DNA of 45,718 bases from Candidatus Omnitrophota bacterium (GTDB lineage Bacteria > Omnitrophota > Gorgyraeia > Zapsychrales > Zapsychraceae), in the NCBI GenBank assembly GCA_029568545.1, contig JAKQAH010000005.1, positions 1 to 45,718 of the forward strand, written 5' to 3'. The notes under the pieces were generated by a model. The model was not told the DNA's origin. It made no database searches and saw only the letters and a list, made by a program, of their open reading frames with translations. Positions 4,195 through 42,544 of this stretch are shown here, piece after piece. Made by a program: the position numbers and the translations under genes. Each line of letters starts with the position of its first letter. Within the stretch, counting starts at the first letter, position 1.

Positions 4195-5685
4195 TCATTG
4201 ACCCTGTTGAACTTGCCGAACAGCTTTAAGCCATCCTCCGTACAGCTCCTTGCGTCTTTTATCATGCATTAGGGGGGCAAATGTGCGCTCTGTCTGGTGC
4301 AATTTGTTGAGCGCCTGCCTGCCTTTCCATAGCCCGATCGTTACGCCGGCCAGCTGGGCCGCTCCGAGCGCCGTCGATTCGATGATCCTTGGGCGAACGA
4401 TCTCGCATCCCAGCATATCCGCCTGAAACTGCATGAGAAAATTATTCCGGCACGCGCCGCCGTCGACCTTGAGCGATTTTATGCTTTTCCCCGATTCCGC
4501 TTTCATGATATCAAAAACATCCTTGGTCTGATAGGCGATCGCTTCTAGCGCTGCCCGCGCGATATGCGCTTTTTGGCTCCCGCGGGTCAACCCGCAAATC
4601 ATGCCGCGCGCCTGCGCATTCCAATACGGCGCGCCGAGCCCCGTGAATGCCGGAACAAAATAAACGCCGCCGGTATTTTCCATGCCCCTGATCAGCTGTT
4701 CCGTCTCGGCCGATTGCTTGATCATTCCCAGCTGGTCCCGGAGCCACTGCACGACGGCCCCGGCAACGAATATGGACCCTTCCATCGCATAAATGGGCCG
4801 GCCTTGCGCGTCGCTGGCAATCGTCGTGATCAGTCCTTTTTTGGAAAGGATCATCTTCTTTCCCGTATTTAATACAATAAAACATCCCGTGCCGTAGGTG
4901 TTCTTGACGGTCCCAGGCGCATAACATCCCTGGCCATAAAGAGCAGCCTGCTGGTCTCCCAAAACAGATGCTATGGGAATGCCGTCGGGTAATTGTATTC
5001 CTTGGACGTTCGTCTGACCAAAGATCGACCCCGAGTTCTGGACGCGCGGGAGCATAGAGGTGGGAATGCGTAAAATTCCTAAAAGCTCATGATCCCATGC
5101 CCGCGTGCGTATATTAAAGATCAATGTGCGCGAGGCATTGGTCATGTCTGTGACGTGAGACCGCCCTCCGCTTAATTTCCAAATAAGCCAGCTGTCGATC
5201 GTCCCAAAACAGATCTTTCCTGCCTGCGCGCGCTTCCGCAGTCCCTTGATATTATCCAAATACCATTTAATCTTCGTCCCGGAGAAATACGGGTCAAGCA
5301 CCAATCCCGTTCTTTGCCGGAACTTGGGCGCGTACGGAGATAAGTTTTTGCAAATTTCCGCCGTGCGGCGGCACTGCCAGACGATGGCCCGCGCAACGGG
5401 TTTTCCCGTCTTCCGGTCCCAGAGAACCGTCGTTTCGCGCTGATTCGTGATCCCGATCGCCGCGATCTTTTGGGGCGATATCCGCGATTTCCGCAACACC
5501 CCTTTGATCACATCCGCGCAGGATCGCCAGATTTCTTCGGCATCATGCTCGACCCATCCGGGCTTGGGAAAATACTGCTTGAACTCTTTGTAGTCGCTGC
5601 CGACGATCCGTCCTTGCCCGTCAAAAAGAAAAGCCCTTGACCCGGTCGTTCCTTGATCGATCGCAAGAATAAATTGATCTTTCAT
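4195..5685 (-). CDS. glpK: glycerol kinase
   Basis: 496-aa FGGY kinase with AIDQGTTGSRAFLF, GITNQRETT and GDQQAALYGQ motifs. AAGGAGA lies 6 nt upstream of the ATG. Confidence 0.95.
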   Translation of the reverse strand: MKDQFILAIDQGTTGSRAFLFDGQGRIVGSDYKEFKQYFPKPGWVEHDAEEIWRSCADVIKGVLRKSRISPQKIAAIGITNQRETTVLWDRKTGKPVARAIVWQCRRTAEICKNLSPYAPKFRQRTGLVLDPYFSGTKIKWYLDNIKGLRKRAQAGKICFGTIDSWLIWKLSGGRSHVTDMTNASRTLIFNIRTRAWDHELLGILRIPTSMLPRVQNSGSIFGQTNVQGIQLPDGIPIASVLGDQQAALYGQGCYAPGTVKNTYGTGCFIVLNTGKKMILSKKGLITTIASDAQGRPIYAMEGSIFVAGAVVQWLRDQLGMIKQSAETEQLIRGMENTGGVYFVPAFTGLGAPYWNAQARGMICGLTRGSQKAHIARAALEAIAYQTKDVFDIMKAESGKSIKSLKVDGGACRNNFLMQFQADMLGCEIVRPRIIESTALGAAQLAGVTIGLWKGRQALNKLHQTERTFAPLMHDKRRKELYGGWLKAVRQVQQGQ

Positions 5686-11890: not shown

Positions 11891-11908
11891 ACCAAGACTC
11901 TCCTACAA

Positions 11909-11950
11909 ACATAAAGGAGCTAAATGATCGCTCACTCAACTCCTTTATGT
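11909..11950 (-). promoter_or_regulatory. 11-bp perfect hairpin in the gdhA-gltB spacer (decoy-SD / anti-SD element or weak terminator)
   Basis: ACAUAAAGGAG[20 nt containing GUGA-GCGA-UCAU]CUCCUUUAUGU, then UUGUAGGAGAGUCUUGGU-AUG(gltB). Confidence 0.5.
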
Positions 11951-11997
11951 CCGTTTGCCTCTTTATGTTCTTCCTGTCGGATACACCGCTTTCTTTA

Positions 11998-18099: not shown

Positions 18100-18141
18100 A
18101 AAAAAGCCTCTTTGCGCAGTTTTACCCTTGCTAAAGAGGAC
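18100..18141 (-). terminator. intrinsic terminator in the glnN leader
   Basis: GUCCUCUUU(A)GC[14 nt]GCAAAGAGGC followed by UUUUUU. It lies between the predicted promoter and the glnN RBS. Confidence 0.7.
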
Positions 18142-18151
18142 GCCAGTGCCC
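18138..18151 (-). promoter_or_regulatory. ANTAR-type P2 hexaloop hairpin overlapping the glnN leader terminator
   Basis: GGGC[ACUGGC]GUCC with loop A1 and G4. The 3' arm GUCC is the first 4 nt of the terminator 5' arm. Confidence 0.55.
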
Positions 18152-18194
18152 TTGCACCCAACACCAAAAAAATCTTGTTCTCACGTCGGAGATC

Positions 18195-18221
18195 CCTTTT
18201 CAGACATCATTGCCTAAAAGG
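18195..18221 (-). promoter_or_regulatory. hexaloop hairpin (P1-like) at the 5' end of the glnN leader
   Basis: CCUUUUAGGC[AAUGAU]GUCUGAAAAGG. The loop has A1/G4 and resembles the amtB-leader loops GAUGAU and AAAGAU. Confidence 0.45.
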
Positions 18222-18232
18222 TGAGATAGATG

Positions 18233-18261
18233 AATATACAGCCGACGTATATTTTTGTCAA
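18233..18261 (-). promoter_or_regulatory. sigma70-type promoter for glnN (TTGACA-17-TATATT)
   Basis: -35 at 18261..18256 and -10 at 18238..18233, read on the minus strand. Confidence 0.6.
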
Positions 18262-18378: not shown

Positions 18379-18720
18379 TTATCCTATAGCTTCTTTCCCT
18401 TCTTCCCCCGTTCGGATGCGGATGCACCGCGGCAGATCAAGGACAAAAATCTTTCCATCTCCGATCTGGCCCGTCCTGGCGCCTTTGATGATCGCATTAA
18501 TGGTCGGCTCGACAAAATCCTCATTAACAGCGATTTCAAACCGAACTTTTTTCAAGAGATTGACCTCGTGGATAACCCCTCGGTACGTTTCCTTGAACCC
18601 CCTTTGTTGCCCGCACCCAAGAACATTGGTCACGGTCATCTTATGAACTTCCGCATCAAACAGCGCCTTTTTGACATCCGGCATCTTGTGCGGCTGGATC
18701 ATGGCGACAATTAATTTCAT
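18379..18720 (-). CDS. glnB: nitrogen regulatory protein P-II
   Basis: 113 aa from the ATG at 18720 ([12 protein letters not shown]...) with AAAGGAGAA upstream. It has a T-loop with YRG and lies directly downstream of amtB. Confidence 0.93.
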
Positions 18721-18814
18721 ATCAATTCTCCTTTTTTTCTCATTCATCATTTAGATAAAATTGGGCTTCTGAAATTTTGAGAAAAATACGCGCATGGCGC
18801 CGTTTCTCCCTGTC

Positions 18815-20155
18815 TCACTGATTCAAGAAAATTTGAAATCCGGCGTAAGATTCCATCCCGTGTTCCCCAATATCCAACCCCTGCGTCTCTTCTTCTTTGG
18901 ATACGCGAATGCCGGTCGTCGCTTTTAAAACGCCGAATATGGCAAAGGCCGCTGCCGCCGCCGATAACCCGTAAGCGACTACGCCAATGAGCTGCACCGC
19001 AAAAGAATGCGCTGGATCTGTGCTGAAAATCCCGACTGCCAAGGTTCCCCAAACGCCGCAGACCAAGTGAACGGAAAGGGCGCCAACGGGATCATCGATC
19101 TTCAATTTTGTATCAAAAAAGATAACCGCCAAGACAACCAAAATGCCGGCAATCAAGCCAATGAGAATGGACGATAATATAGAAACCGTGTCCGCTCCGG
19201 CCGTAATGCCGACGAGACCAGCCAACGTGCCATTTAAAACCATGGACAGATCGGGCTTCTTCTGGATCCACTGAGACGTAAACATAGCCCCGGTCATCCC
19301 CGCACACGCGGCTAAGGATGTTGTAACCAGCACATAGGATACGGCCCCCGGATCGGCAGATAAAACAGACCCGCCGTTGAAGCCGAACCACCCCAGCCAC
19401 AGCATAAACACTCCGATCGTCGCAAGCGGCATGCTGTGACCCGGAATAGCTTTAATGGCTCCGTTGGCATATTTGCCTAGCCGTGGCCCAAGCAAGACTG
19501 CGCCAGCTAATGCCCCCCAGCCTCCAACAGAGTGAACCAGCGTCGAGCCGGCAAAATCATGAAATCCCATTTCGCTCAGCCATCCGCCGCCCCAATTCCA
19601 GCTGCCAAGAAACGGATAGACCAATCCGACAAAGAACACCGAGAAGATCAGAAAACTGTTCAATTTTACGCGCTCGGCAACGGCACCTGAAACGATTGTG
19701 GCTGCCGTTGCGGCAAACATCCCCTGAAATAAGAAATCCGTCCAGTAGGTATAATGCCCGTCCGCATAGGCGATGAGTCCGGCGGCTCCCTCCGGCGACG
19801 AGATGCCCCAGCCCGAAAACCCGAACCATTTCCCGAAAATCCAGGCATCCCCCGGATACATAAGATTGAATCCGCCGACCGCATAGGTCAGCAGCCCGAT
19901 ACCCACGATCGTGACATTCTTAAAGAGAATGTTGACCGTATTTTTAGATTGTGTGAGGCCTGACTCTACGGTGGCAAACCCCAAGCTCATGATAAAAACG
20001 AGAGCCGTCGAGATCATCATCCAGAGGTTATTAACCATGAACACCGCCTCGTCCGCAGTTGCCGCTTCGGCCAGGCCGTAAAACCCGCCGAAAAAAGCAA
20101 CCAGCCCGACGATTATCCCCATTTTTCCTACTTTCTTTAAAAAGTCGTCTAACAT
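18815..20155 (-). CDS. amtB: ammonium transporter
   Basis: The Amt/MEP core includes DFAGSTLVHSVGGW and is multi-TM. The ATG at 20155 (MLDDFLKK...) is preceded by GGGAGGG. The 71 extra codons in the track ORF cover the leader terminators. Confidence 0.93.
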   Translation of the reverse strand: MLDDFLKKVGKMGIIVGLVAFFGGFYGLAEAATADEAVFMVNNLWMMISTALVFIMSLGFATVESGLTQSKNTVNILFKNVTIVGIGLLTYAVGGFNLMYPGDAWIFGKWFGFSGWGISSPEGAAGLIAYADGHYTYWTDFLFQGMFAATAATIVSGAVAERVKLNSFLIFSVFFVGLVYPFLGSWNWGGGWLSEMGFHDFAGSTLVHSVGGWGALAGAVLLGPRLGKYANGAIKAIPGHSMPLATIGVFMLWLGWFGFNGGSVLSADPGAVSYVLVTTSLAACAGMTGAMFTSQWIQKKPDLSMVLNGTLAGLVGITAGADTVSILSSILIGLIAGILVVLAVIFFDTKLKIDDPVGALSVHLVCGVWGTLAVGIFSTDPAHSFAVQLIGVVAYGLSAAAAAFAIFGVLKATTGIRVSKEEETQGLDIGEHGMESYAGFQIFLNQ

Positions 20156-20185
20156 TTTTCCCTCCCGTTGAATGTGTTTTTGACC

Positions 20186-20229
20186 AAAAAAAATCCTCTC
20201 CGAAAACCCTTCAGGGCTTCCAAAGAGGA
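20186..20229 (-). terminator. amtB leader terminator 2
   Basis: UCCUCUUUGGAAGCCC[UGAA]GGGUUUUCGGAGAGGA, 16 bp including 4 G.U, followed by U8. It ends 30 nt before the amtB ATG. Confidence 0.8.
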
Positions 20230-20258
20230 CGTCACTGTCCAACAGCATCTTTGCTTTT
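20227..20258 (-). promoter_or_regulatory. ANTAR-type dual hexaloop element, unit 2
   Basis: AAAAGC[AAAGAU]GCUGUU is immediately followed by GGAC[AGUGAC]GUCC. Both loops have A1/G4, and the P2 3' arm overlaps the terminator 2 5' arm. Confidence 0.6.
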
Positions 20259-20315
20259 ATGTAAAAGCCGGCGATCTTTGAATAAATCCGGAACGTCCGA
20301 CTGTGATCTGGGCAC

Positions 20316-20355
20316 AAAAAAACCCGACTTCCACGGAACTCTGTGGTAGGTCGGG
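20316..20355 (-). terminator. amtB leader terminator 1
   Basis: CCCGAC-CUA-CCAC[AGAGUUCC]GUGG-AA-GUCGGG followed by U7. Confidence 0.7.
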
Positions 20356-20394
20356 CCGCGTTGCCCAAAAATTTTCTAAACCATCATCGGTTTA
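20353..20394 (-). promoter_or_regulatory. ANTAR-type dual hexaloop element, unit 1
   Basis: UAAACC[GAUGAU]GGUUUA, a 10-nt linker, then GGGC[AACGCG]GCCC. The P2 loop has A1/G4 and its 3' arm shares CCC with the terminator 1 5' arm. The P1 loop has G at position 1, a deviation. Confidence 0.55.
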
Positions 20395-20418
20395 ACTGCT
20401 TGCTTCTAAGACTCTGCA

Positions 20419-20447
20419 AGTATACAAGCCGTTTGTGCGCCTGTCAA
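20419..20447 (-). promoter_or_regulatory. sigma70-type promoter for amtB-glnB (TTGACA-17-TATACT)
   Basis: -35 at 20447..20442 and -10 at 20424..20419 on the minus strand, 12 nt after the regulator stop. Confidence 0.65.
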
Positions 20448-20458
20448 GAAATTATTTC

Positions 20459-21697
20459 TTATTTCTTTTTTTGAAACTCATCCATCAAAAGAATTGATTC
20501 CGCGATCTCTTTCATGGACCGGCAGGAATCCATACTTTTTTTATGGATCATTTTATGCGCTTCCTCCTCGGAGAGGCCGCTCAAGCGCATGAGCACGCCC
20601 TTGGCCCGCTCAACCAATTTTCTTGTCTCCAAAGCCTCTTTGGCGTTCAAGGCCTCCTGCATGAGATGCGTATTTTCAACCGCGATGGCCGCTTGATTCG
20701 CGACCATTTGCAGCACATTGATCTCTTCGCGAGTAAACGTGTGCGGCTCTTTGGTGTAAACGTTGACAACGCCGATGGAATGGTCTTTGACGACCATCGG
20801 CACGGAAAGCATCGAGGTCAGCCCCTCTCTGATCGCCAAATCGCGGAACCCGTATTTTTGCTCCGTGCGCACATCATCCACGGTGACGGGTTTTTTGGCC
20901 TTCATGGCCTCTCCGGCAACGCTGCCGTGCGCCTTGACGTTAGGTTTGTTCTTGTATTCCAGGCTCAAGCTCTGCGAAGCCTTGATGACAAGCTCGTCGT
21001 GCTTTTCATCCAGCAGCATAATGGAGCATATCTTGGAATTGAGCATCTCGGCCGTCACGACCACAATCAGGTTGAGGATCTCATCAATATAGTTCTCGGA
21101 AGTAATCGATTGGCTGACCTTCACCAGGCTGTCGAATTGCAAAGCCTTTTGCTTGATATCCTGGAACAGCCGCGCATGCTCGATCACGCCGCTGATCTGC
21201 TTGGCGATCAGCGTGATCATGCCGATCGTTGCGGGAGTATATTCGTGCGCTTTTTTGTGCTGGATATTCACGACGCCGATGGCTTCGTTATTATAGATGA
21301 TCGGGACCGAAAGAAAAGCCTCGTAGCGGTCTTCGGGCAGCACATCAAAACCCTTGAAACGTTTGTCCTGATAGGCATTTTCCTTAATCGCGACGGGCTT
21401 GTTTTCCCGGGCAACCCATCCGGTGATCCCTTCGCCGGCCCTAAGATGGATCTTCCCCAGCTCTCGGGAGTGCGGCGTTTTGGAAGCCATCAGGACAAGG
21501 TTTTGCTTTTTCTCATCAAAGAGGTAAATAAAGACGGAGTCCGCCTTGGTGGCTTCCGTCATGACGCCGACCACTTCGGACAGGATCTTAGGAAGATCGG
21601 GCTGTGCATTGGTGATCTCCACAATCTTGCGTAAAACCCCAAGCTCTTGGCTTTGGCTGATATTCAGCTTTTTATTTTTTTCTTTTTTTGCGGTCAT
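20459..21697 (-). CDS. GAF-GAF-ANTAR RNA-binding antiterminator-type regulator
   Basis: 412 aa with two GAF-like modules (roughly residues 20-180 and 190-350). The C-terminal ANTAR helix bundle reads ALETRKLVERAKGVLMRLSGLSEEEAHKMIHKKSMDSCRSMKEIAESIL. There is no receiver domain. Confidence 0.85.
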   Translation of the reverse strand: MTAKKEKNKKLNISQSQELGVLRKIVEITNAQPDLPKILSEVVGVMTEATKADSVFIYLFDEKKQNLVLMASKTPHSRELGKIHLRAGEGITGWVARENKPVAIKENAYQDKRFKGFDVLPEDRYEAFLSVPIIYNNEAIGVVNIQHKKAHEYTPATIGMITLIAKQISGVIEHARLFQDIKQKALQFDSLVKVSQSITSENYIDEILNLIVVVTAEMLNSKICSIMLLDEKHDELVIKASQSLSLEYKNKPNVKAHGSVAGEAMKAKKPVTVDDVRTEQKYGFRDLAIREGLTSMLSVPMVVKDHSIGVVNVYTKEPHTFTREEINVLQMVANQAAIAVENTHLMQEALNAKEALETRKLVERAKGVLMRLSGLSEEEAHKMIHKKSMDSCRSMKEIAESILLMDEFQKKK

Positions 21698-21717
21698 GTT
21701 TGCCTTATACTGCGCTT

Positions 21718-21885
21718 GTGAACTATCTTGCTGCTTTTCTTGTCTTTAGCCTTTGCTTTCTGGGCATGGCGCTCGGCCTGATCCTTGCCCGGAAAACTTT
21801 GCGCAAAGGATGCTCTCTGGACCCCGATTCCTGCGCCTGCCGCAGAGAAGGCAAAGACCCCTCTTCATGCGAACATGCAAATTGA
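21718..21885 (+). CDS. small single-TM Cys-rich protein, NqrM (DUF539)-like candidate
   Basis: VNYLAAFLVFSLCFLGMALGLILARKTLRKGCSLDPDSCACRREGKDPSSCEHAN, one TM helix then a basic stretch and C-x6-C-x-C-x9-C. It fills the nqrF/regulator spacer. The start is uncertain (GTG 21718, TTG 21700 or TTG 21688) and no SD is visible. Confidence 0.45.
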   Translation: MNYLAAFLVFSLCFLGMALGLILARKTLRKGCSLDPDSCACRREGKDPSSCEHAN

Positions 21886-21903
21886 AATTCCGATCTATAA
21901 AAT

Positions 21904-23142
21904 TTATCCGAACGAATCAAACGCGATCATTTCCGGCGGAACCCCGAGCGAATCCAGCATTTTCTGGACGGCGCTGATCATCATCGGCGGGCCGCAGAGA
22001 TAATATTCAACTTCTTCCGGCTGCTCATGATTCTTCAAATAATTCTCGTAAAGCACGCTATGGATAAACCCGGTATACCCAGCCCATTGATCCTCCGGAA
22101 GAGCCTCGGATAATCCTATATTATAAGAGAAATTGGGAAATGCGTTAGCAAGTTCTTTGAATTCGTTATCATAGAACATTTCTCGTTTCGAGCGCGCGCC
22201 GTACCAAAAACTTATTTTTCGATCGCGCGTCTTAAGCGTCTTAAGCAAATGGAACAAGTGGCTCCGCATCGGAGCCATGCCGGCGCCGCCTCCGACGTAA
22301 ATCATTTCCCGTTTTGTATCCTTGATAAAAAATTCCCCGTAGGGCCCGCTGACCGTGACGCGATCCCCCGGTTTTAAGTTGAATATAAAAGATGAGGCTT
22401 TCCCTGGAGGCAGGTGCATGCTGCCCGCCGGAGGCGTTGCAATACGGACATTCAGCATGATGATATCGTTTTCCGCAGGATAGCTGGCCATGGAGTAGGC
22501 GCGGAAAATGGGCTCGTCATTTTCCGCCTTCAGGTCCCAAAGACGATATTTATCCCAATCGGAACGATATTTCTCTTCAATGGCAAATTCCTTATAGCTC
22601 AATTTGTACGGGGGGATATCTATCTGGATGTAACCCCCGGCCTTAAAATCCAATTTCTGCCCAGCGGGCATCTGGAGAATGAGCTCTTTGATAAACGTCG
22701 CGACATTGTGGTTTGTCCGGACCGTACATTCGAATTTCCGAATGTTGAATATTTCCTCGGGAACATGGATCTTCATATCGCCGCGGACCTTGACCTGGCA
22801 CGCCAAACGGTAATGCTTCTTTTGTTCCCCGCGGGAAATGAGCCCTTTCTCCGTCTGCAATATATCTCCACCGCCTTCCAAGACCTGGCACTTGCACATT
22901 GCGCAGGTTCCTCCCCCGCCGCACGCCGAAGGAAGGAAAATCTTATTGTTCGAAAGCGTGCTCAGAAGGGATTTGCCTCCGGAGACAACGAGCGGCTCGG
23001 CTTCATCATTGATCAGGATCTTACACTCGCCTTTTTTAGCGACTTTTGATTCGACAAAAGTGAGCAAAAAGATCAGAATGAAAATGATCCCGACAAAAAC
23101 GCCTACACTCAATAGCACAAACGGAATAAAGCCCACGTTCAT
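21904..23142 (-). CDS. nqrF: Na+-translocating NADH:quinone oxidoreductase subunit F
   Basis: N-terminal TM helix, 2Fe-2S ferredoxin motif [12 protein letters not shown], and an FAD/NADH-binding domain ([15 protein letters not shown]). Confidence 0.95.
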
Positions 23143-23151
23143 TTTCCTTCA

Positions 23152-23763
23152 TTAAAAACTGATGCCCGCAAAACACAGAAAGCCCATCGCCATCAATCCG
23201 GTCATGAGCATCGTGATCCCCAGGCCCCTCAACGGCCTCGGAACATTAGAATATTGCAACTTTTTCCGTATCGCCGCCATGGCGACGATCGCCAAAGCCC
23301 AGCCGATGCCCGACCCCACCCCAAAAACAAGGGATTCCCCAAAGTTATAATCGCGCTCGTCCATGAGAAGAGACGCTCCTAAGATAGCGCAGTTCACGGC
23401 GATCAGAGGAAGAAAGATCCCCAAAGCGGCGTAAAGCGCCGGGCTATATCGGTCGATAACCATCTCGACGATCTGGACCATCGCCGCGATGACCGCGATA
23501 AACGCGATGAAACTCAGGAAGCTTAAATCCGCTTGCGGTAAGCCGGCCCATGCCAGGGCCCCCGGAGCCAGGAGAAAATGATTGATAGCCCAGTTCATCG
23601 GCGTCGTGATCGTCATCACAAAGACCACCGCGATGCCAAGCCCCACGGCCGTCTCGATCTTTTTCGAGCAGGCCAAGAACGAACACATGCCCAAAAAATA
23701 GGCCAGAAGAATATTTTCGACAAATATGCTTTTGATCGCCAAGCTTAAATAATGTTCGACCAT
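23152..23763 (-). CDS. nqrE: Na+-NQR subunit E
   Basis: 203-aa polytopic NqrDE/RnfAE-family protein, in operon order. Confidence 0.9.
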
Positions 23764-23781
23764 AAAAACCTTTTTTCCCTT

Positions 23782-24417
23782 TTAGGAATCTTCAGCATAG
23801 CCGCTGATGGCCCGCTGGATCCAAATAATGATCCCCAAAAGAAAGAACGCCCCCGGCGCAATGACCATGACGCCGCAATTGATATACCCCGCGTCATAAA
23901 AAGATTGCGGGATGACCGGCGCGCCCAAGAGCGTGCCGCTGCCGAGAATTTCCCGGATCGTCCCAACGATGACCAAAATGCCGCTATACCCCAGTCCGTT
24001 TCCAAGTCCGTCGAGAAAAGACTTCCACGGCGGATTGGCCATCGCGTAGGCCTCGGCCCGGCCCATCACAATGCAGTTGGTGATGATCAGCCCGACAAAG
24101 ACGCTGAGCTGCTTGCTGACATCGTACATATAAGCTTTCAGGAATTGGTCGGCCAAAATGACCAGCAGCGAAATGACCGAGAGCTGGACAATGATGCGTA
24201 TTTTCGACGGGATCCAGTTGCGCATAAGCGAGATCGCCACGTTGGACATCGCCACGACGAAGGTCAAAGAGGCGGACATGACAAGCGCCGTCTTAAGCTG
24301 CGTCGTGACAGCCAGCGTCGAACAGATCCCCAGGATCTGGAACGTGATCGGGTTATTGTCCCAAAGCCCGTCCTTAAAAACTTTTTTGTTCTTTCTTGAA
24401 AAAAGAGATTCTGCCAT
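23782..24417 (-). CDS. nqrD: Na+-NQR subunit D
   Basis: NqrDE/RnfAE family. The ATG at 24417 ([12 protein letters not shown]...) avoids overlap with nqrC. Confidence 0.9.
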
Positions 24418-24434
24418 TTTTTGATCCCTGGCCG

Positions 24435-25160
24435 CTAGAGTTCTTCCCGTTGCCTTATTTGCCCTAAAAACGGCTCGTAGGCGCGGACCCATTTGTCGAT
24501 CATCGCCGTCACCCCTTTCGAAGTCATCGTCGCGCCGGTGATCCCGTCAACATGGAACGGCGCGTTCTCCTCGGAAACACTATCGGCGACCTTTCCTTTT
24601 ATAACCTTGACCGGCGAAAGCATATTTTTTGCCGCATCCCAGATCTTTTTTCCTTTAAAATTGTTCTGAAACCAGCTCTTTTCGATCTCAGCCCCTAGGC
24701 CGGGCGTTTCCCCGTGCTTGTAGAACGTGATCCCTCTGACCGTGACCGCATCGGATTCCAGAGCAAAATAGCCGTAGAGCGTTGACCATAATCCTTTGCC
24801 GACAATCGGGAAACAATAGGCCATGATTTGCCCGTGCTCCTTATAAACATAAAGAGGAGAGAGGCCTTCTCCTTCCTTGATGTCGCTGGGCAACTTTCCC
24901 TCAACAAAAAGCCCCTGGCTATTTAAGACTTTTTCCTCGATCTTTTGCTTATAAATAGCCAAAACTTCCTGGGCTTTAGCTTCGGGAGGGATCGGGTCCT
25001 TTAGACCGACCGCCTTCAGGATGTTTTTCTTGATATCCAGGGCCACGTTCATTTCTTGCTTGGCTTTCAGCCCTTGGGAAACGGCGGACAGCGAAAGGCT
25101 GCAGACCACACAGACGGCAAAGGCAAACATGAACGTATAGCGGTTACTTTGCGGCGGCAC
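24435..25160 (-). CDS. nqrC: Na+-NQR subunit C (FMN-binding)
   Basis: Covalent-FMN motif [12 protein letters not shown] prefer the GTG at 25160, which has AAGGAGA 7 nt upstream and overlaps the nqrB end by 17 nt. The track start is 25196. Confidence 0.88.
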
Positions 25161-30257: not shown

Positions 30258-30329
30258 CTGCCCCGTCTGGACTCGAACCAGAAATAACTGATCCAGAGTC
30301 AGTCGTGTTACCAATTACACCACAGGGCA
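30258..30329 (-). tRNA. tRNA-Gln (anticodon CUG)
   Basis: Hand-folded cloverleaf. Acceptor UGCCCUG/CGGGGCA with U1-A72, D stem GUGU/ACAC, anticodon stem ACUGA/UCAGU with loop CUCUGGA, and T arm UCUGG-UUCGAGU-CCAGA. CCA is not encoded. Confidence 0.9.
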
Positions 30330-33506: not shown

Positions 33507-35084
33507 TCATTTGGCAAATTCAATGGCTCTTTTTTCGCGAAGGACAATCACCTTGATTTGCCCCGGATACTCCATGCCCTCTTCGATCTTTTTCCGGATA
33601 TCTCTCGCCATGACGATGGCTTCGTCGTCATTGATCTTATCCGGATCCACAATGATGCGGATTTCCCGTCCCGCCTGCAAGGCGTAGGTCTTGCTAACGC
33701 CCTTGAATGAATTGGCGATCTTCTCAAGACTTTCGAGCCTTTTGACATAGGTTTCGAGCGTCTCGGCACGGGCGCCAGGCCGTGCAGCACTGATCGCATC
33801 CGCCGCGCAAACCAGCGCGCCATAAATAGACGTCATTTCAACTTCTTCATGGTGGGATTCAACAGCATTAGCCACGTCCTCCGCCTCACCGTATTTGCGG
33901 CACAGATTCCCGCCCACAACAGCATGCGTTCCCTCTTCAACATCCTGGCTGACCACTTTGCCGATATCGTGCAGAAGTCCTGCGCGCATCGCAATTTTCG
34001 GATCGAGCCCAAGCTGCGAAGCCATGGATCCAATCAGCATCGCCACTTCTTTGGTGTGCTGAAGGCCGTTTTGCCCGTAGCTCGTCCGGAATTTCAGGCG
34101 GCCCACTAATTTTAAAAGCTCGATATGCATTCCGTGGATACCTAGGTCAAAAGCCGCTTTTTCGCCTTCTTCCTTGATGATCGTTTCCATTTCTTTCTTG
34201 GCGCGCTCGACAATTTCCTCAATGCGCCCGGGATGGATGCGCCCGTCGGCAATAAGATTCTCCAAGGCGATTTTGGCCGTTTCACGACGGAACATGTCAA
34301 AACCGGAAATCGTGACCGCCTCCGGAGTGTCATCGATAATAATGTCCACACCCGCCGCTGCTTCAAGGGCGCGAATATTCCGCCCCTCGCGGCCAATAAT
34401 GCGGCCTTTCATTTCATCGCTAGGCAACATGACGACCGTAACGGTCGAGGCTGCCGTATGCTCGGAAGCGCATCTTTGGATGGCGGTCCCAATAATGTTA
34501 CGGGCTTTTTTGTCAACATTGTCCCTGATCTCCTCTTCCATCTGCCGGATTCGGGAAGCCTTTTCCTGCAGCAAATCTTCGTCAACGCGGGAAAGAAGAA
34601 GCTTTTTCGCTTCCTCTTCGTTCATAGACGATATTTTTTGGAGGCGCTGCTTCTCCTCGGCAATCATTCTTTCGAGCTCTTCATTCTTTCCTTTGATATT
34701 CGCTTCGTTTTTCTGAAGCCCCTCAAGTCTTCCGTTAATATCTTTTTCTTTTCGCTCCAGCAGATCCAGGCGCTTGTCTAAATTTTCTTCCCTTTGCTGT
34801 AGCCGCTTTTCGTTGTTAACGATCTCTTCCCGGCGCTCTTTGCTTTCCTTCTCGAAGTCCTGGCGTAATTTAATCATCAGGTCTTTGGCCTGCAATTCGG
34901 CTTCTTTTTTCCTGTTTTCTACATCCTTTTGAGCCGAATCCCTTAAGGCTTTTGCTTTCATTTCTGCGTCTTTAATTCTTTTCCCGGCAAAAAACCACCT
35001 TAAGAGATACCCGGCAAAGAAGACAGCAACAAAAATCAGCCAGCTCAAGACGCTCTGAAGGTATATATGTTTTTCATCTATCAT
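33507..35084 (-). CDS. rny: ribonuclease Y
   Basis: N-terminal TM helix, long coiled coil, KH domain and HD domain (LLHDIGK). Confidence 0.95.
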
Positions 35085-36143: not shown

Positions 36144-38195
36144 TTATCTTTGGACAACACCCAGCTTTTTGATGAGCGTTGCGCAAACATTCTTGTGCAC
36201 CTCTGCGACCTCTTCGTCGCGCAGGGTTCTGGCGGCACGCGCGCCGTATGTCAGAGAAAAAACCATTCCCCGATAGCCTTGGGGAATTTTATCGCCTTCG
36301 TATTTCTCCACGAATTTGGTTTGCATTAATACAATATCTTTTTGCGCATTAATCGCCTGACGTATCTCCCGTTCAATATCGCGCGCCAAAACCGTTGGGG
36401 GGACCGCCAGGCTGATATCCCGGCTGATCGCCGGGAATTCCTGAACAGGAACATATTTACGGGGCGAGCTTTCTCGACGGAAGATCTCTTCCATGTCGAC
36501 CTGAGCAAATAAAACATTCTTTTGCTTAATATCCCATCGGTCGAGAATTCCGCTTTCGAGCTTGCCGGCAACTCCAGCCGTTTTCCCATTGATCAAAATG
36601 GCCGCGCTCTGTCCTTCTTCAAAAAAGTCTGTTTCGGCAGGTTGAAATTCGACCTTGCTGTTATCTATTTGTAGGCGGGCGAGCATCTGTTCCAGAACGC
36701 CCTTCAGATCATAAAAATCCGCTTCTTCTTTCTTCTCCAGGCGCCAATCATCCGTCCTTCGGCCCACGATCATAACTCCTACGGTTTCTTTTTCCCCGCC
36801 CATGCCATAAATCTTTCCTGTTTCAAAAACCCTAAAGTTTTTCTGGCCTTTGTTAACATTCGAAAGAGCTACGGACAAGAAGCCCGGCAACATCGACGGG
36901 CGCATCACCTCCTGGTCTTGCGTCAGCGGATTAATCAGGGCGACGGCAGGGAGCCTTTCCTGTCCGGACATCTCAAGGTTTTTGCGGCTGATCATCGTGT
37001 ACGTAATGATCTGATTGAACCCTTGCGCTAAAAAGAGCGTTTCTATTGTTTGTCTCGCCCGGCGGACCGGATCGGAAGAGATTGCCGAAACCTTGATTTG
37101 CGGGAAAGTCCCGGGCAAGCTGTCATATCCTGAAATCCGGGCGATTTCTTCGACAATATCTTCCGCGCCTTTAACATCGTTGCGGAAAGAGGGTGGCCGT
37201 ATTTTTAAAATATCTTTTTTACCGCGTGTAACGCCAAAATCCAGTTTTTTGAGAATATCCAGGCATTTCGCTGCCGTCAATGATGCGCCAATGCGCGCAT
37301 TAATCCAGCCTTGCGATACGACGATCGCTCTTCCGGGGCCTTTTTTACTTTTTGTCCGCATATCGGAACGCCCTATTATCTTCCCTTGGGCAGCCCGAAG
37401 AATCAGATCAATGGCCCGATCCGCCCCGGTTTGCACGGTGCCGTCATCCACCCCCCTCTCGAACCGATAAGAAGAGTCGCTGCTCAGTCCGAGCTTGCGG
37501 GATGCCCTCCGGATAATGATCGGATCAAAATAAGCGCTTTCCAGAAGAATGTTTTTCGTGCGCTCTGTAACTTCCGTATTCTTCCCTCCCATGACGCCTG
37601 CAATCGCAACCGGCTGTTTTGCATCTGCAATAATAAGGATCGACGGGTCGAGAGACCTTTCAACGCCGTCAATCGTCACGATCTTTTCTCCTTGTCTCGC
37701 CCGGCGAACAATAATTTTCCCGCCGCAGAGCTTGTCATAATCGAACGCGTGCATCGGCTGTCCGGTTTCCATCAAACAAAAATTTGTGACATCTACAACA
37801 TTATTGATGGGCCTCATGCCAATAGCGGTCAGTCTTTTCATCATGCCGGCTTCGGATCCTTGGATCTTCACGTCTTGAATCAAGGTTGCGATATAGCGAG
37901 AGCACGCTTGGGGGTCGGAAATTTCAATGTGACATCCCCGGCGCGGCCATGTGCGTTTTTTTATTTTTGGGAACGTTCGCGGAGCACCGAGAACAGCGGC
38001 TGTTTCGCGGGCCACGCCCAGCATGTTCAGGCAATCCGGACGGTTGGGGGTGATCTCCATCTCAAAGACGTCATCGTCTTTCGTCGACAGAATAGCCTCC
38101 ACCTCGTGTCCGGCCATGGTCAGCTCGCGGGCGAGGGCCGCCGGAGATATTTTGGTCGTTACATAATCTTTGAGCCAGTTGACGCTGATCTTCAT
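36144..38195 (-). CDS. pheT: phenylalanyl-tRNA synthetase beta subunit (short form lacking the N-terminal OB-fold tRNA-binding insert)
   Basis: 683 aa with MKISVNWLKDYV... and ...TPNRPDCLNMLGVARE. It has B3/4, B5 and FDX-ACB-like C-terminal regions and follows pheS. Confidence 0.93.
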   Translation of the reverse strand: MKISVNWLKDYVTTKISPAALARELTMAGHEVEAILSTKDDDVFEMEITPNRPDCLNMLGVARETAAVLGAPRTFPKIKKRTWPRRGCHIEISDPQACSRYIATLIQDVKIQGSEAGMMKRLTAIGMRPINNVVDVTNFCLMETGQPMHAFDYDKLCGGKIIVRRARQGEKIVTIDGVERSLDPSILIIADAKQPVAIAGVMGGKNTEVTERTKNILLESAYFDPIIIRRASRKLGLSSDSSYRFERGVDDGTVQTGADRAIDLILRAAQGKIIGRSDMRTKSKKGPGRAIVVSQGWINARIGASLTAAKCLDILKKLDFGVTRGKKDILKIRPPSFRNDVKGAEDIVEEIARISGYDSLPGTFPQIKVSAISSDPVRRARQTIETLFLAQGFNQIITYTMISRKNLEMSGQERLPAVALINPLTQDQEVMRPSMLPGFLSVALSNVNKGQKNFRVFETGKIYGMGGEKETVGVMIVGRRTDDWRLEKKEEADFYDLKGVLEQMLARLQIDNSKVEFQPAETDFFEEGQSAAILINGKTAGVAGKLESGILDRWDIKQKNVLFAQVDMEEIFRRESSPRKYVPVQEFPAISRDISLAVPPTVLARDIEREIRQAINAQKDIVLMQTKFVEKYEGDKIPQGYRGMVFSLTYGARAARTLRDEEVAEVHKNVCATLIKKLGVVQR

Positions 38196-42281: not shown

Positions 42282-42358
42282 TGGTGGGGCCAACAAGGCT
42301 CGAACTTGTGACCTCTTCCATGTCAAGGAAGCACTCTAACCAACTGAGCTATGGCCCC
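42282..42358 (-). tRNA. tRNA-Val (anticodon GAC), CCA encoded
   Basis: GGGGCCA/UGGCCCC acceptor, anticodon arm CUUCC-UUGACAU-GGAAG, T loop GUUCGAGCC. 77 nt. Confidence 0.92.
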
Positions 42359-42378
42359 ACATATTAAATTTCATCCCA

Positions 42379-42461
42379 TGGGCAAGGTGGGAATCGAACC
42401 CACACAGCCTTTCGGCCACAGGATTTTAAGTCCTGCGTGTATGCAATTCCACCACTTGCCC
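42379..42461 (-). tRNA. tRNA-Leu (anticodon UAA), long variable arm
   Basis: GGGCAAG/CUUGCCC acceptor, anticodon arm CAGGA-CUUAAAA-UCCUG, variable arm GGCCGAAAGGCU. 83 nt, CCA not encoded. Confidence 0.9.
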
Positions 42462-42472
42462 AAATTTATTAA

Positions 42473-42544
<72 letters not shown>

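Follow-up and report, generated by a model that had tools for sequence, protein, structure and literature searches.

The window analysed here, a 45,718-nt stretch of DNA from a Candidatus Omnitrophota bacterium (contig JAKQAH010000005.1, positions 1 to 45,718), raises the question of how an operon for an ammonium transporter can be expressed from behind two transcription terminators. On the minus strand, a near-consensus promoter is followed by two intrinsic terminators in series before the ribosome-binding site (RBS) of amtB, the first gene of an amtB-glnB (P-II) operon, and the stop codon of a gene encoding a GAF-GAF-ANTAR protein lies 12 nt upstream of the −35 box of this promoter. An earlier note, made from the sequence alone, had described the promoter and the two terminators and had interpreted the leader as two tandem antiterminator/terminator modules of the ANTAR type. 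We re-read the sequence and found these core elements, including all four hexaloop hairpins as they had been drawn, at the positions given in Table 1. Sequence comparison makes it quite probable that the amtB-glnB leader is an attenuation leader with two ANTAR-controlled terminator switches in series. Unit 1 denotes the hairpins P1a and P2a together with the terminator T1, and unit 2 denotes P1b and P2b together with T2.

Table 1. Positions of the amtB leader elements, the adjoining genes and the second nitrogen-gene leader in the window, listed in the direction of transcription.
Feature	Positions	Strand	Description
GAF-GAF-ANTAR regulator gene	20459..21697	minus	412 aa; Pfam GAF_2 (1e-42, in two stretches) and ANTAR (72 bits, residues 352–403)
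Sigma-70-type promoter, TTGACA-17-TATACT	20419..20447	minus	11 of 12 consensus positions; TTGACA 20447–20442, 17-nt spacer, TATACT 20424–20419
P1a, upstream hexaloop hairpin, UUAAACC[GAUGAU]GGUUUAG	20376..20395	minus	7 bp; loop 20388–20383
P2a, antiterminator hexaloop hairpin, (UU)GGGC[AACGCG]GCCC(GA)	20351..20368	minus	Core 20366–20353; 4–6 bp; −8.2 kcal/mol
T1, intrinsic terminator, CCCGAC..CCAC[8 nt]GUGG..GUCGGG plus U7	20316..20355	minus	U7 20322–20316; −17.7 kcal/mol, z = −2.35
Inter-unit spacer	20259..20315	minus	Poorly conserved; weak hairpin 20300–20288 and 5' half of the GCUUUU[ACAU]AAAAGC hairpin
P1b candidate (doubtful), AAAAGC[AAAGAU]GCUGUU	20241..20258	minus	3+2 pairs with an A-G mismatch; not the minimum-free-energy (MFE) fold
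P2b, antiterminator hexaloop hairpin, GGAC[AGUGAC]GUCC	20227..20240	minus	−4.0 kcal/mol
T2, intrinsic terminator	20186..20230	minus	17-bp stem 20230–20193, UGAA loop, U8; −25.8 kcal/mol, z = −5.0
amtB-P-II operon with RBS	18379..20166	minus	RBS GGGAGGG 20166–20160; amtB 20155–18815 (ATG at 20155); P-II gene 18750–18379; Pfam Ammonium_transp 1e-113, P-II 4e-27
Leader of the type III glutamine synthetase (GSIII) gene (glnN)	18100..18261	minus	TTGACA-17-TATATT promoter, hexaloop hairpins and terminator

The ANTAR substrate has been defined as two hairpins of at least 3 bp, each with a hexaloop carrying A at position 1 and G at position 4 (A1/G4), of which the second (P2) competes with a terminator; an ANTAR protein bound to the hexaloop hairpin keeps the base of the terminator open (PMC3369931). 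In a revised model, the protein dimer binds one hexaloop at a time, with P1 serving recruitment and P2 antitermination, and the minimal ANTAR-binding motif is a single hexaloop (PMC8934654). Three of the four loops in the window leader fit A1/G4, as had been claimed: G4 is present in all four, and A1 in P2a, P1b, and P2b. In unit 1, both hairpins have stems of at least 3 bp and loops of 6 nt. P1a by itself folds at −5.2 kcal/mol (z = −4.0) and fits the P1 consensus of the clade, RRCC[RNUGAN]GGUUU; it is separated by a 9-nt linker from P2a, whose 3' arm forms the first 3–5 nt of the 5' arm of T1, and the hairpin and the terminator are mutually exclusive. When the dual hairpin was folded by itself, the proposed structure was obtained (−14 kcal/mol, z = −2.7), with P1a and P2a both in the MFE fold. 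We trained a covariance model (model R1) on 28 dual hairpins taken from other genomes, excluding the window and its two orthologous leaders, and searched the window with filters off. Model R1 matched unit 1 (20394–20353) with 35 bits (E = 4.4e-8), and because of this score unit 1 is, by sequence, a secure canonical dual-hexaloop ANTAR substrate. Over 100 loci, all 115 matches of model R1 at E <= 0.05 were on the gene strand and none was on the opposite strand, which argues for a low false-positive rate.

The claim of two complete modules thus stands for unit 1, and unit 2 calls for a different description. P2b is an exact match to the clade consensus GGRC[ANNGAN]GUCC and, being one hexaloop hairpin with G4, carries in its sequence what the single-hexaloop minimal motif asks for. 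All 4 nt of its 3' arm lie inside the stem of T2, so that the sharing of P2 arms with terminator arms applies to both units, and no shuffle of T2 folds equally well. Upstream of it, P1b abuts P2b (a linker of 0–3 nt) and has the stem of at least 3 bp and the 6-nt loop nominally, with 3 contiguous pairs outside the MFE fold. The fold preferred here is the GCUUUU[ACAU]AAAAGC hairpin (20268–20253), whose 3' arm reaches 6 nt into P1b and which is the MFE structure (−4.3 kcal/mol, versus −2.9 kcal/mol for the hexaloop form of P1b); the pairing of AAAAGC with an upstream GCUUUU, first mentioned as a caveat, is therefore real and outcompetes P1b. Model R1 aligned unit 2 (20258–20227) exactly as it had been drawn, with a marginal 16.5 bits (E = 0.006), a score that derives essentially from P2b and to which P1b adds little. 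Judged in this way, unit 2 is most likely a P2-only single-hexaloop unit or a unit whose P1 is very weak. The inter-unit spacer contains a weak, terminator-like hairpin, UCGGA[CGU]UCCGG followed by AUUUAUU (20288–20300, minus strand), which may represent either a degenerate middle unit or a chance resemblance; weighed as a remnant unit, it was found to have no hexaloop and not to be conserved in either of the two orthologous leaders (L084 and L086).

Could both units nevertheless be complete dual-hexaloop modules, with P1b a functional recruitment hairpin that is required at T2? We regard this as possible but doubtful. In its favour, A1 and G4 are both found in the P1b loop, and P1b takes the place of P1 in the alignment to model R1; weak P1 hairpins may also be real, given that every low-scoring dual match (18–25 bits) in other loci falls on the gene strand. 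Other members of the clade also have hexaloop pairs with zero linker, formed by a short hairpin directly next to a terminator apex, and both L084 and L086 have a small A1/G4 hairpin 6 nt upstream of P2b. However, the latter hairpin, UACC[AYAGAYA]GGUA, has a 7-nt loop and is not homologous to P1b, so P1b itself is not conserved. The interrupted stem of P1b and its unfavourable fold count against it as well, and so does its linker: in the eut system, the P1-P2 linker measures 5–12 nt, linkers of 3 or 14 nt impaired function, and a linker cut to 3 nt lost induction (PMC3369931). Moreover, 26 of the 51 later units in the arrays of the clade (described below) begin no more than 14 nt after the preceding U-run and hence leave no space for a separate P1, which suggests that P1 is dispensable in this family.

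The association of such hairpins with terminators is unlikely to arise by chance in this DNA. The composite GGRC[RNNGNN]GYCC with a run of five U within 15–45 nt occurs three times in the 45.7-kb window versus 0.07 expected, and none of 300 dinucleotide shuffles gave three composites. Each lies on the minus strand in the leader of a nitrogen gene: the amtB leader has two and the GSIII leader the third. The bare hairpin pattern GRRCRNNGNNGYYC is not enriched in the window (4 versus 3.2 expected), so the signal sits in the fusion of hairpin and terminator and in its conservation.

Conservation was examined in the closest orthologues. The loci L084/L085 and L086/L087 encode regulators 82% identical to that of the window, and their leaders (L084 and L086) keep the −10 box, P1a, P2a, T1, P2b, and T2 in the same order, with the −10 block CTTGTATACT unchanged. 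T1 shows one compensatory change from A-U to G-C in the upper stem, and in T2 three pairs are altered on both sides. The sequence separating T1 from unit 2 ranges in length from ~60 to ~190 nt among the window, L084, and L086 and is not alignable. The comparison of orthologous leaders that the earlier note had called for therefore bears out five elements and the pairing of both terminators, and P1b is replaced. Among the nine close homologues of the regulator whose loci were inspected, amtB lies downstream only for P0002 and P0004 (L084/L085 and L086/L087), and the others are followed by GSIII, PtsP, or genes without an evident link to nitrogen; for this reason, the nucleotide covariation for this exact leader comes from 3 sequences. 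The metagenomes scanned yielded a single strain variant (L088) and no relatives of intermediate distance. This activated-sludge contig is 98.7% identical to the window over 19376–22560; its 303-nt leader differs at 2 positions (20351 A>U in T1 and 20160 G>A in the RBS) and the first ~115 nt of amtB at 23, which suggests that the N-terminus of AmtB has recombined or evolves fast beside a conserved leader.

On a broader scale, the loci compared comprised 80 from species-representative genomes, 34 from metagenomes, and 13 around close homologues of the regulator (L001–L127). More than 7000 homologues of the regulator were found at E <= 1e-20, and those with a source name are labelled Candidatus Omnitrophota. 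The gene order ANTAR-amtB-P-II-GSIII is present in about half of the 80 related loci. The comparison of ~120 loci revealed a common element, a GGRC[A-N-N-G-A-N]GUCC hairpin whose 3' arm opens an intrinsic terminator, upstream of amtB, GSIII, and, in some loci, ptsP; this fusion is kept across the loci, in agreement with the assignment of the window elements as ANTAR-type switches beside a GAF-ANTAR gene. The pattern GGRC[N6]GYCC followed by a U-run has 89 gene-strand copies in 83 non-redundant loci, versus 3–9 in shuffles, and a looser detector found 179 units on the gene strand versus 20 on the opposite strand. In the P2 loops of the 89 units, position 1 is A in 72 (81%) and G in 12, G4 occurs in 97%, and A5 in 82%. 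In 73 of 88 units, two or more nucleotides of the P2 3' arm are also part of the terminator stem, and the median stability across the clade is −16 kcal/mol for the terminator versus −3.9 kcal/mol for P2; because the terminators are more stable than the competing hairpins, termination would be the default. In dozens of loci, the units start within ~100 nt of the stop codon of the regulator gene.

These loci also show how common a doubled leader is. In the 700 nt upstream of 56 amtB genes, 0, 1, 2, 3, and 4 units were found in 11, 15, 22, 6, and 2 cases, respectively, so that 30 of the 56 leaders have at least two; for amtB genes at least 60% identical to that of the window, 8 of 10 leaders have two or three. 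Judged by these counts, serial terminators are the normal layout of amtB leaders in this clade and not an oddity of one genome. The view that two modules on one leader are unusual is thus not borne out, and a precedent also exists in Desulfotomaculum acetoxidans (described below).

In contrast to P2, the P1 hairpin is sparsely distributed. A hairpin with the P1 consensus lies 6–20 nt upstream of some units, namely 33 of 89, versus 8.4 expected from shuffles; under stricter criteria, the count was 14 of 44 for the first units of arrays, 7 of 51 for later ones, and 12 of 84 for units standing alone. A recognisable P1 is absent from most units of the clade, and units made of one hexaloop hairpin in direct overlap with a terminator are frequent in these Omnitrophota. 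In one sub-clade (L015, L030, L040, L051, L063, L068, L095, and L099), a terminator whose apex is an A1/G4-type hexaloop also serves as the upstream hairpin for the unit that follows. Hexaloop-tipped terminators behind P2 have R at position 1 and G4 in 16 of 21 cases, versus 14 of 77 control hairpins. Daisy chains of the sub-clade type are located at 5275–5430 in L015, 5795–5900 in L030, 5200–5300 in L040, 5292–5450 in L051, and 6790–6960 in L063 and L068; an example is CUCUUAAGACC[AAUGAC]GGUUUUAAGAG with its U-run, the first terminator of a leader, with a GGGC[..]GUCC hairpin overlapping it. We also considered whether T1 and T2 have ANTAR-type hexaloops at their apices and rejected this, since their loops are 8 nt and 4 nt, unlike those of L015, L030, L040, and L051.

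The abundance of abutting units allows a further, tentative proposal, to which we give rather less than even credence: the GAF(PtsP-like)-GAF-ANTAR protein of Omnitrophota might act on arrays of 2–4 abutting single-hexaloop/terminator units by being loaded once and then passed from hexaloop to hexaloop as polymerase advances. P1 would then be expected mostly on the first unit only, antitermination would be quasi-processive and glutamine-sensing, and the window leader would represent a spaced-out two-unit version. If true, such a process would contradict the need for a P1 recruitment hairpin at every terminator that is bypassed during transcription.

With two ANTAR-controlled switches in series in the amtB-glnB leader, the following course of events can be envisaged. 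Transcription would start ~7 nt downstream of TATACT, near 20412. Each terminator is more stable than the hairpin that competes with it (Table 1), and by default transcription would stop at T1, with the transcripts that escape stopping at T2. In its RNA-binding state, the GAF-GAF-ANTAR protein would bind the hexaloops, in unit 1 first P1a for recruitment and then P2a. The closed P2a and P2b would block the bottom 3–5 bp of each terminator beside the U-run, and polymerase would read through into amtB-glnB; the GSIII leader, 2 kb further downstream, is presumably under the control of this protein too. The read-through fractions of T1 and T2 would multiply, resulting in a low leak and a steeper response. 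A comparable arrangement was reportedly described by Welz and Breaker in 2007 for two thiamine pyrophosphate (TPP) riboswitches on one Bacillus anthracis leader, where serial terminator switches are said to be more switch-like and to leak less; there the metabolite is sensed by the RNA, whereas here a protein would be the sensor. The response had also been called AND-like, which is the wrong term: one regulator presumably acts at both sites, and with only one input the leader is not an AND gate.

Nitrogen status is the probable signal. Our best guess is that low glutamine, sensed through the PtsP-like GAF1 domain, turns RNA binding on, because GAF1 resembles the glutamine-binding GAF domain of PtsP and because GAF-PtsP genes follow the regulator in several relatives. 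GAF1 (residues 14–178) is most like the GAF domain of PtsP/EI-Ntr (PDB 3ci6, E = 2.6e-24, ~30% identity), a domain that binds glutamine (PMC4848567), and the ANTAR region of the regulator matches Rv1626, NasR, and EutV.

The GSIII leader probably belongs to the same regulon as the amtB leader. It contains a long hexaloop hairpin, UUUUAGGC[AAUGAU]GUCUGAAA (18219–18198), followed by a U7 run, and then AGGGC[ACUGGC]GUCCU (18152–18137), which overlaps a terminator with U6. The stem before the first U7 run is weak and interrupted, and one or two working terminators are possible. Model R1 gave 10.4 bits for this leader, with a long insertion; related GSIII leaders have AGGGC[A..GAA]GUCCU and a terminator. 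In several relatives, a GAF-PtsP (EI-Ntr) gene follows the regulator in place of amtB (L126, 2955–4071; L127, 3886–6150; L002, 5360–5540), and in L002 this gene is preceded by GGGC[GGCGAG]GCCC and by GGC[AAUGAA]GCC with a terminator.

Several observations weigh against ANTAR control of the amtB leader: (i) the P1a loop starts with G1 instead of A1, although the orthologous P1a loops carry A1/G4 (AUCGAU in L084 and AGUGAC in L086), so that the G1 of the window is, by sequence, a local variant; (ii) the P2a loop lacks the A5 typical of the clade; (iii) the 20351 A>U change of L088, the only one inside an element, breaks a pair of T1; (iv) the score of unit 2 is no better than that of a match of 16.0 bits at 38081–38049, which was rejected as chance, as it lies inside the coding region of pheT; (v) pairing and covariation of the model R1 training instances (99% paired, with double-sided changes in 5 of 6 P1 pairs) are in part a product of the way in which the instances were chosen, namely for pairing; (vi) Rfam returned no ANTAR or riboswitch family for the window at gathering thresholds or for 20100–20500 at E <= 10, the sole match being T2 to a Bacteroides small RNA (18.9 bits), which was dismissed as meaningless; and (vii) the gene neighbourhood is the only tie between the regulator and the RNA, and the full genome may encode other ANTAR proteins.

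The last point leaves room for control of the units by another ANTAR protein, a different RNA-binding protein, or a metabolite-sensing RNA. The P2 stem GGRC/GUCC is unusually fixed for an ANTAR target and could mean a different recognition mode, and the loci of three close regulator homologues (L081, L124, and L125) have no such unit and no amtB downstream. On the other hand, the A1/G4 loop signature is that of ANTAR targets, the closeness of the units to the regulator stop codon recurs in dozens of loci, and against a metabolite-sensing RNA stand the lack of a riboswitch match in Rfam and the size of the units, which at 14–45 nt are too small for a ligand pocket. We therefore consider control by any of these improbable. 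That T1 and T2 are constitutive terminators, T1 ending the regulator transcript and T2 insulating, with the hexaloops incidental, is highly improbable, for while T1 lies ~140 nt past the regulator stop codon and would also halt read-through from that gene, and the bare hairpin pattern is no commoner than expected, a conserved near-consensus promoter stands upstream of both terminators with no other promoter for amtB, constitutive stops of this strength would silence amtB-glnB, and the fusion of hairpin and terminator is more than 10-fold above shuffles, strand-specific, and confined to nitrogen-gene leaders.

The probable ANTAR-controlled switches in series at amtB can be compared with known systems. 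One of these is EutV/EutW of Enterococcus faecalis (PMC3369931, PMC8934654), which likewise has pairs of hexaloop hairpins of the A1/G4 type (with G1 in P1a of the window), a P2 3' arm shared with the terminator, and an ANTAR output domain; the 9-nt linker of unit 1 lies within the eut range, and the dual hairpins of the clade have linkers of ~6–20 nt. The two differ in that (i) the eut sensor is a phospho-receiver and the targets are eut genes, whereas the window has a GAF-GAF sensor with amtB-glnB and GSIII as targets; (ii) eut has four terminators before four genes, whereas the window has two on one leader; and (iii) in the window clade the P2 stem is nearly fixed (GGRC/GUCC), and many members, probably including unit 2, have no P1.

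Matches to the ANTAR motif are widespread upstream of amtB/P-II (PMC3369931, Table S2). For the amtB-P-II leader of D. acetoxidans, this table lists two, at 34402–34448 and 34596–34642, ~190 nt apart, and paired matches are listed also for the nif and XRE leaders of this organism and for a urea leader of D. carboxydivorans. The D. acetoxidans leader, compared here by its table listing alone, shares with the window the target operon, the motif class, and the serial layout. It belongs to a different phylum, the ANTAR proteins beside some of the table matches are response regulators, and the tandem is listed there but not analysed.

In Geobacter sulfurreducens, GnfK/GnfR likewise controls nitrogen genes by ANTAR antitermination, GnfR acting on the glnK-amtB and nif leaders through CAGGC[AANGGC]GCC (PMC2995071). 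This site, a short GC stem with an A1/G4 hexaloop overlapping the terminator, resembles GGRC[ANNGAN]GUCC. However, GnfR is a phosphorylated response regulator under sigma-54/GnfM, whereas the window has a sigma-70-like promoter and a GAF-GAF sensor. NasR/nasF and AmiR/amiE are further cases of ANTAR antitermination of nitrogen-related operons through hexaloop hairpins, and differ in having a single terminator per leader, NIT or AmiC-partner sensors, and a proteobacterial host.

The motif class, the target operon, and the doubled layout thus all have precedents. New are the phylum, the GAF-GAF sensor, the near-fixed P2 stem, and, at the level of the clade, the prevalence of arrays of mostly single-hexaloop units. 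We found no literature match for ANTAR with tandem terminators or for ANTAR in Omnitrophota, and neither PMC3369931 nor a 2025 review contains a characterised GAF-ANTAR example, signal, or regulon. GAF-ANTAR is a common ANTAR architecture, and this locus and its ~120 relatives give a clean pairing of regulator and target with (i) a terminator-fused RNA element with a defined consensus, GGRC[ANNGAN]GUCC; (ii) a nitrogen regulon that is coherent, its members being amtB-glnB, GSIII, and, in some genomes, ptsP; and (iii) a testable hypothesis for the ligand, as GAF1 resembles the glutamine-binding EI-Ntr GAF domain. ANTAR attenuation would thereby be extended to an uncultivated phylum. Natural single-hexaloop units overlapping terminators are also relevant to the ANTAR model as revised by Walshe et al. 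in 2022 (PMC8934654), and for annotation, leaders of this kind explain strong terminators between a promoter and amtB.

Around the regulator and its targets, the gene neighbourhood is as follows. Genes of the NqrD/E/F type (Rnf-Nqr membrane subunits and a Fer2/FAD/NAD reductase) lie directly upstream of the regulator gene (21904–24492, minus strand), and this neighbourhood is kept in close relatives (L081–L086 and L122–L127). The interval between NqrF and the regulator gene (21697–21904), checked for autoregulation, contains no ANTAR-type unit. After the P-II gene come genes for GSIII, an amidotransferase, and a glutamine-dependent NAD synthetase. Elsewhere in the window, four tRNA genes, three of them clustered, are located on the minus strand (42285–42544 and 30258–30329), and the hairpin scan also found a 22-bp hexaloop hairpin, ACGGACAUAAAGGAGUUGAGUG[AGCGAU]CAUUUAGCUCCUUUAUGUUUGU, at 11905–11954 on the minus strand.

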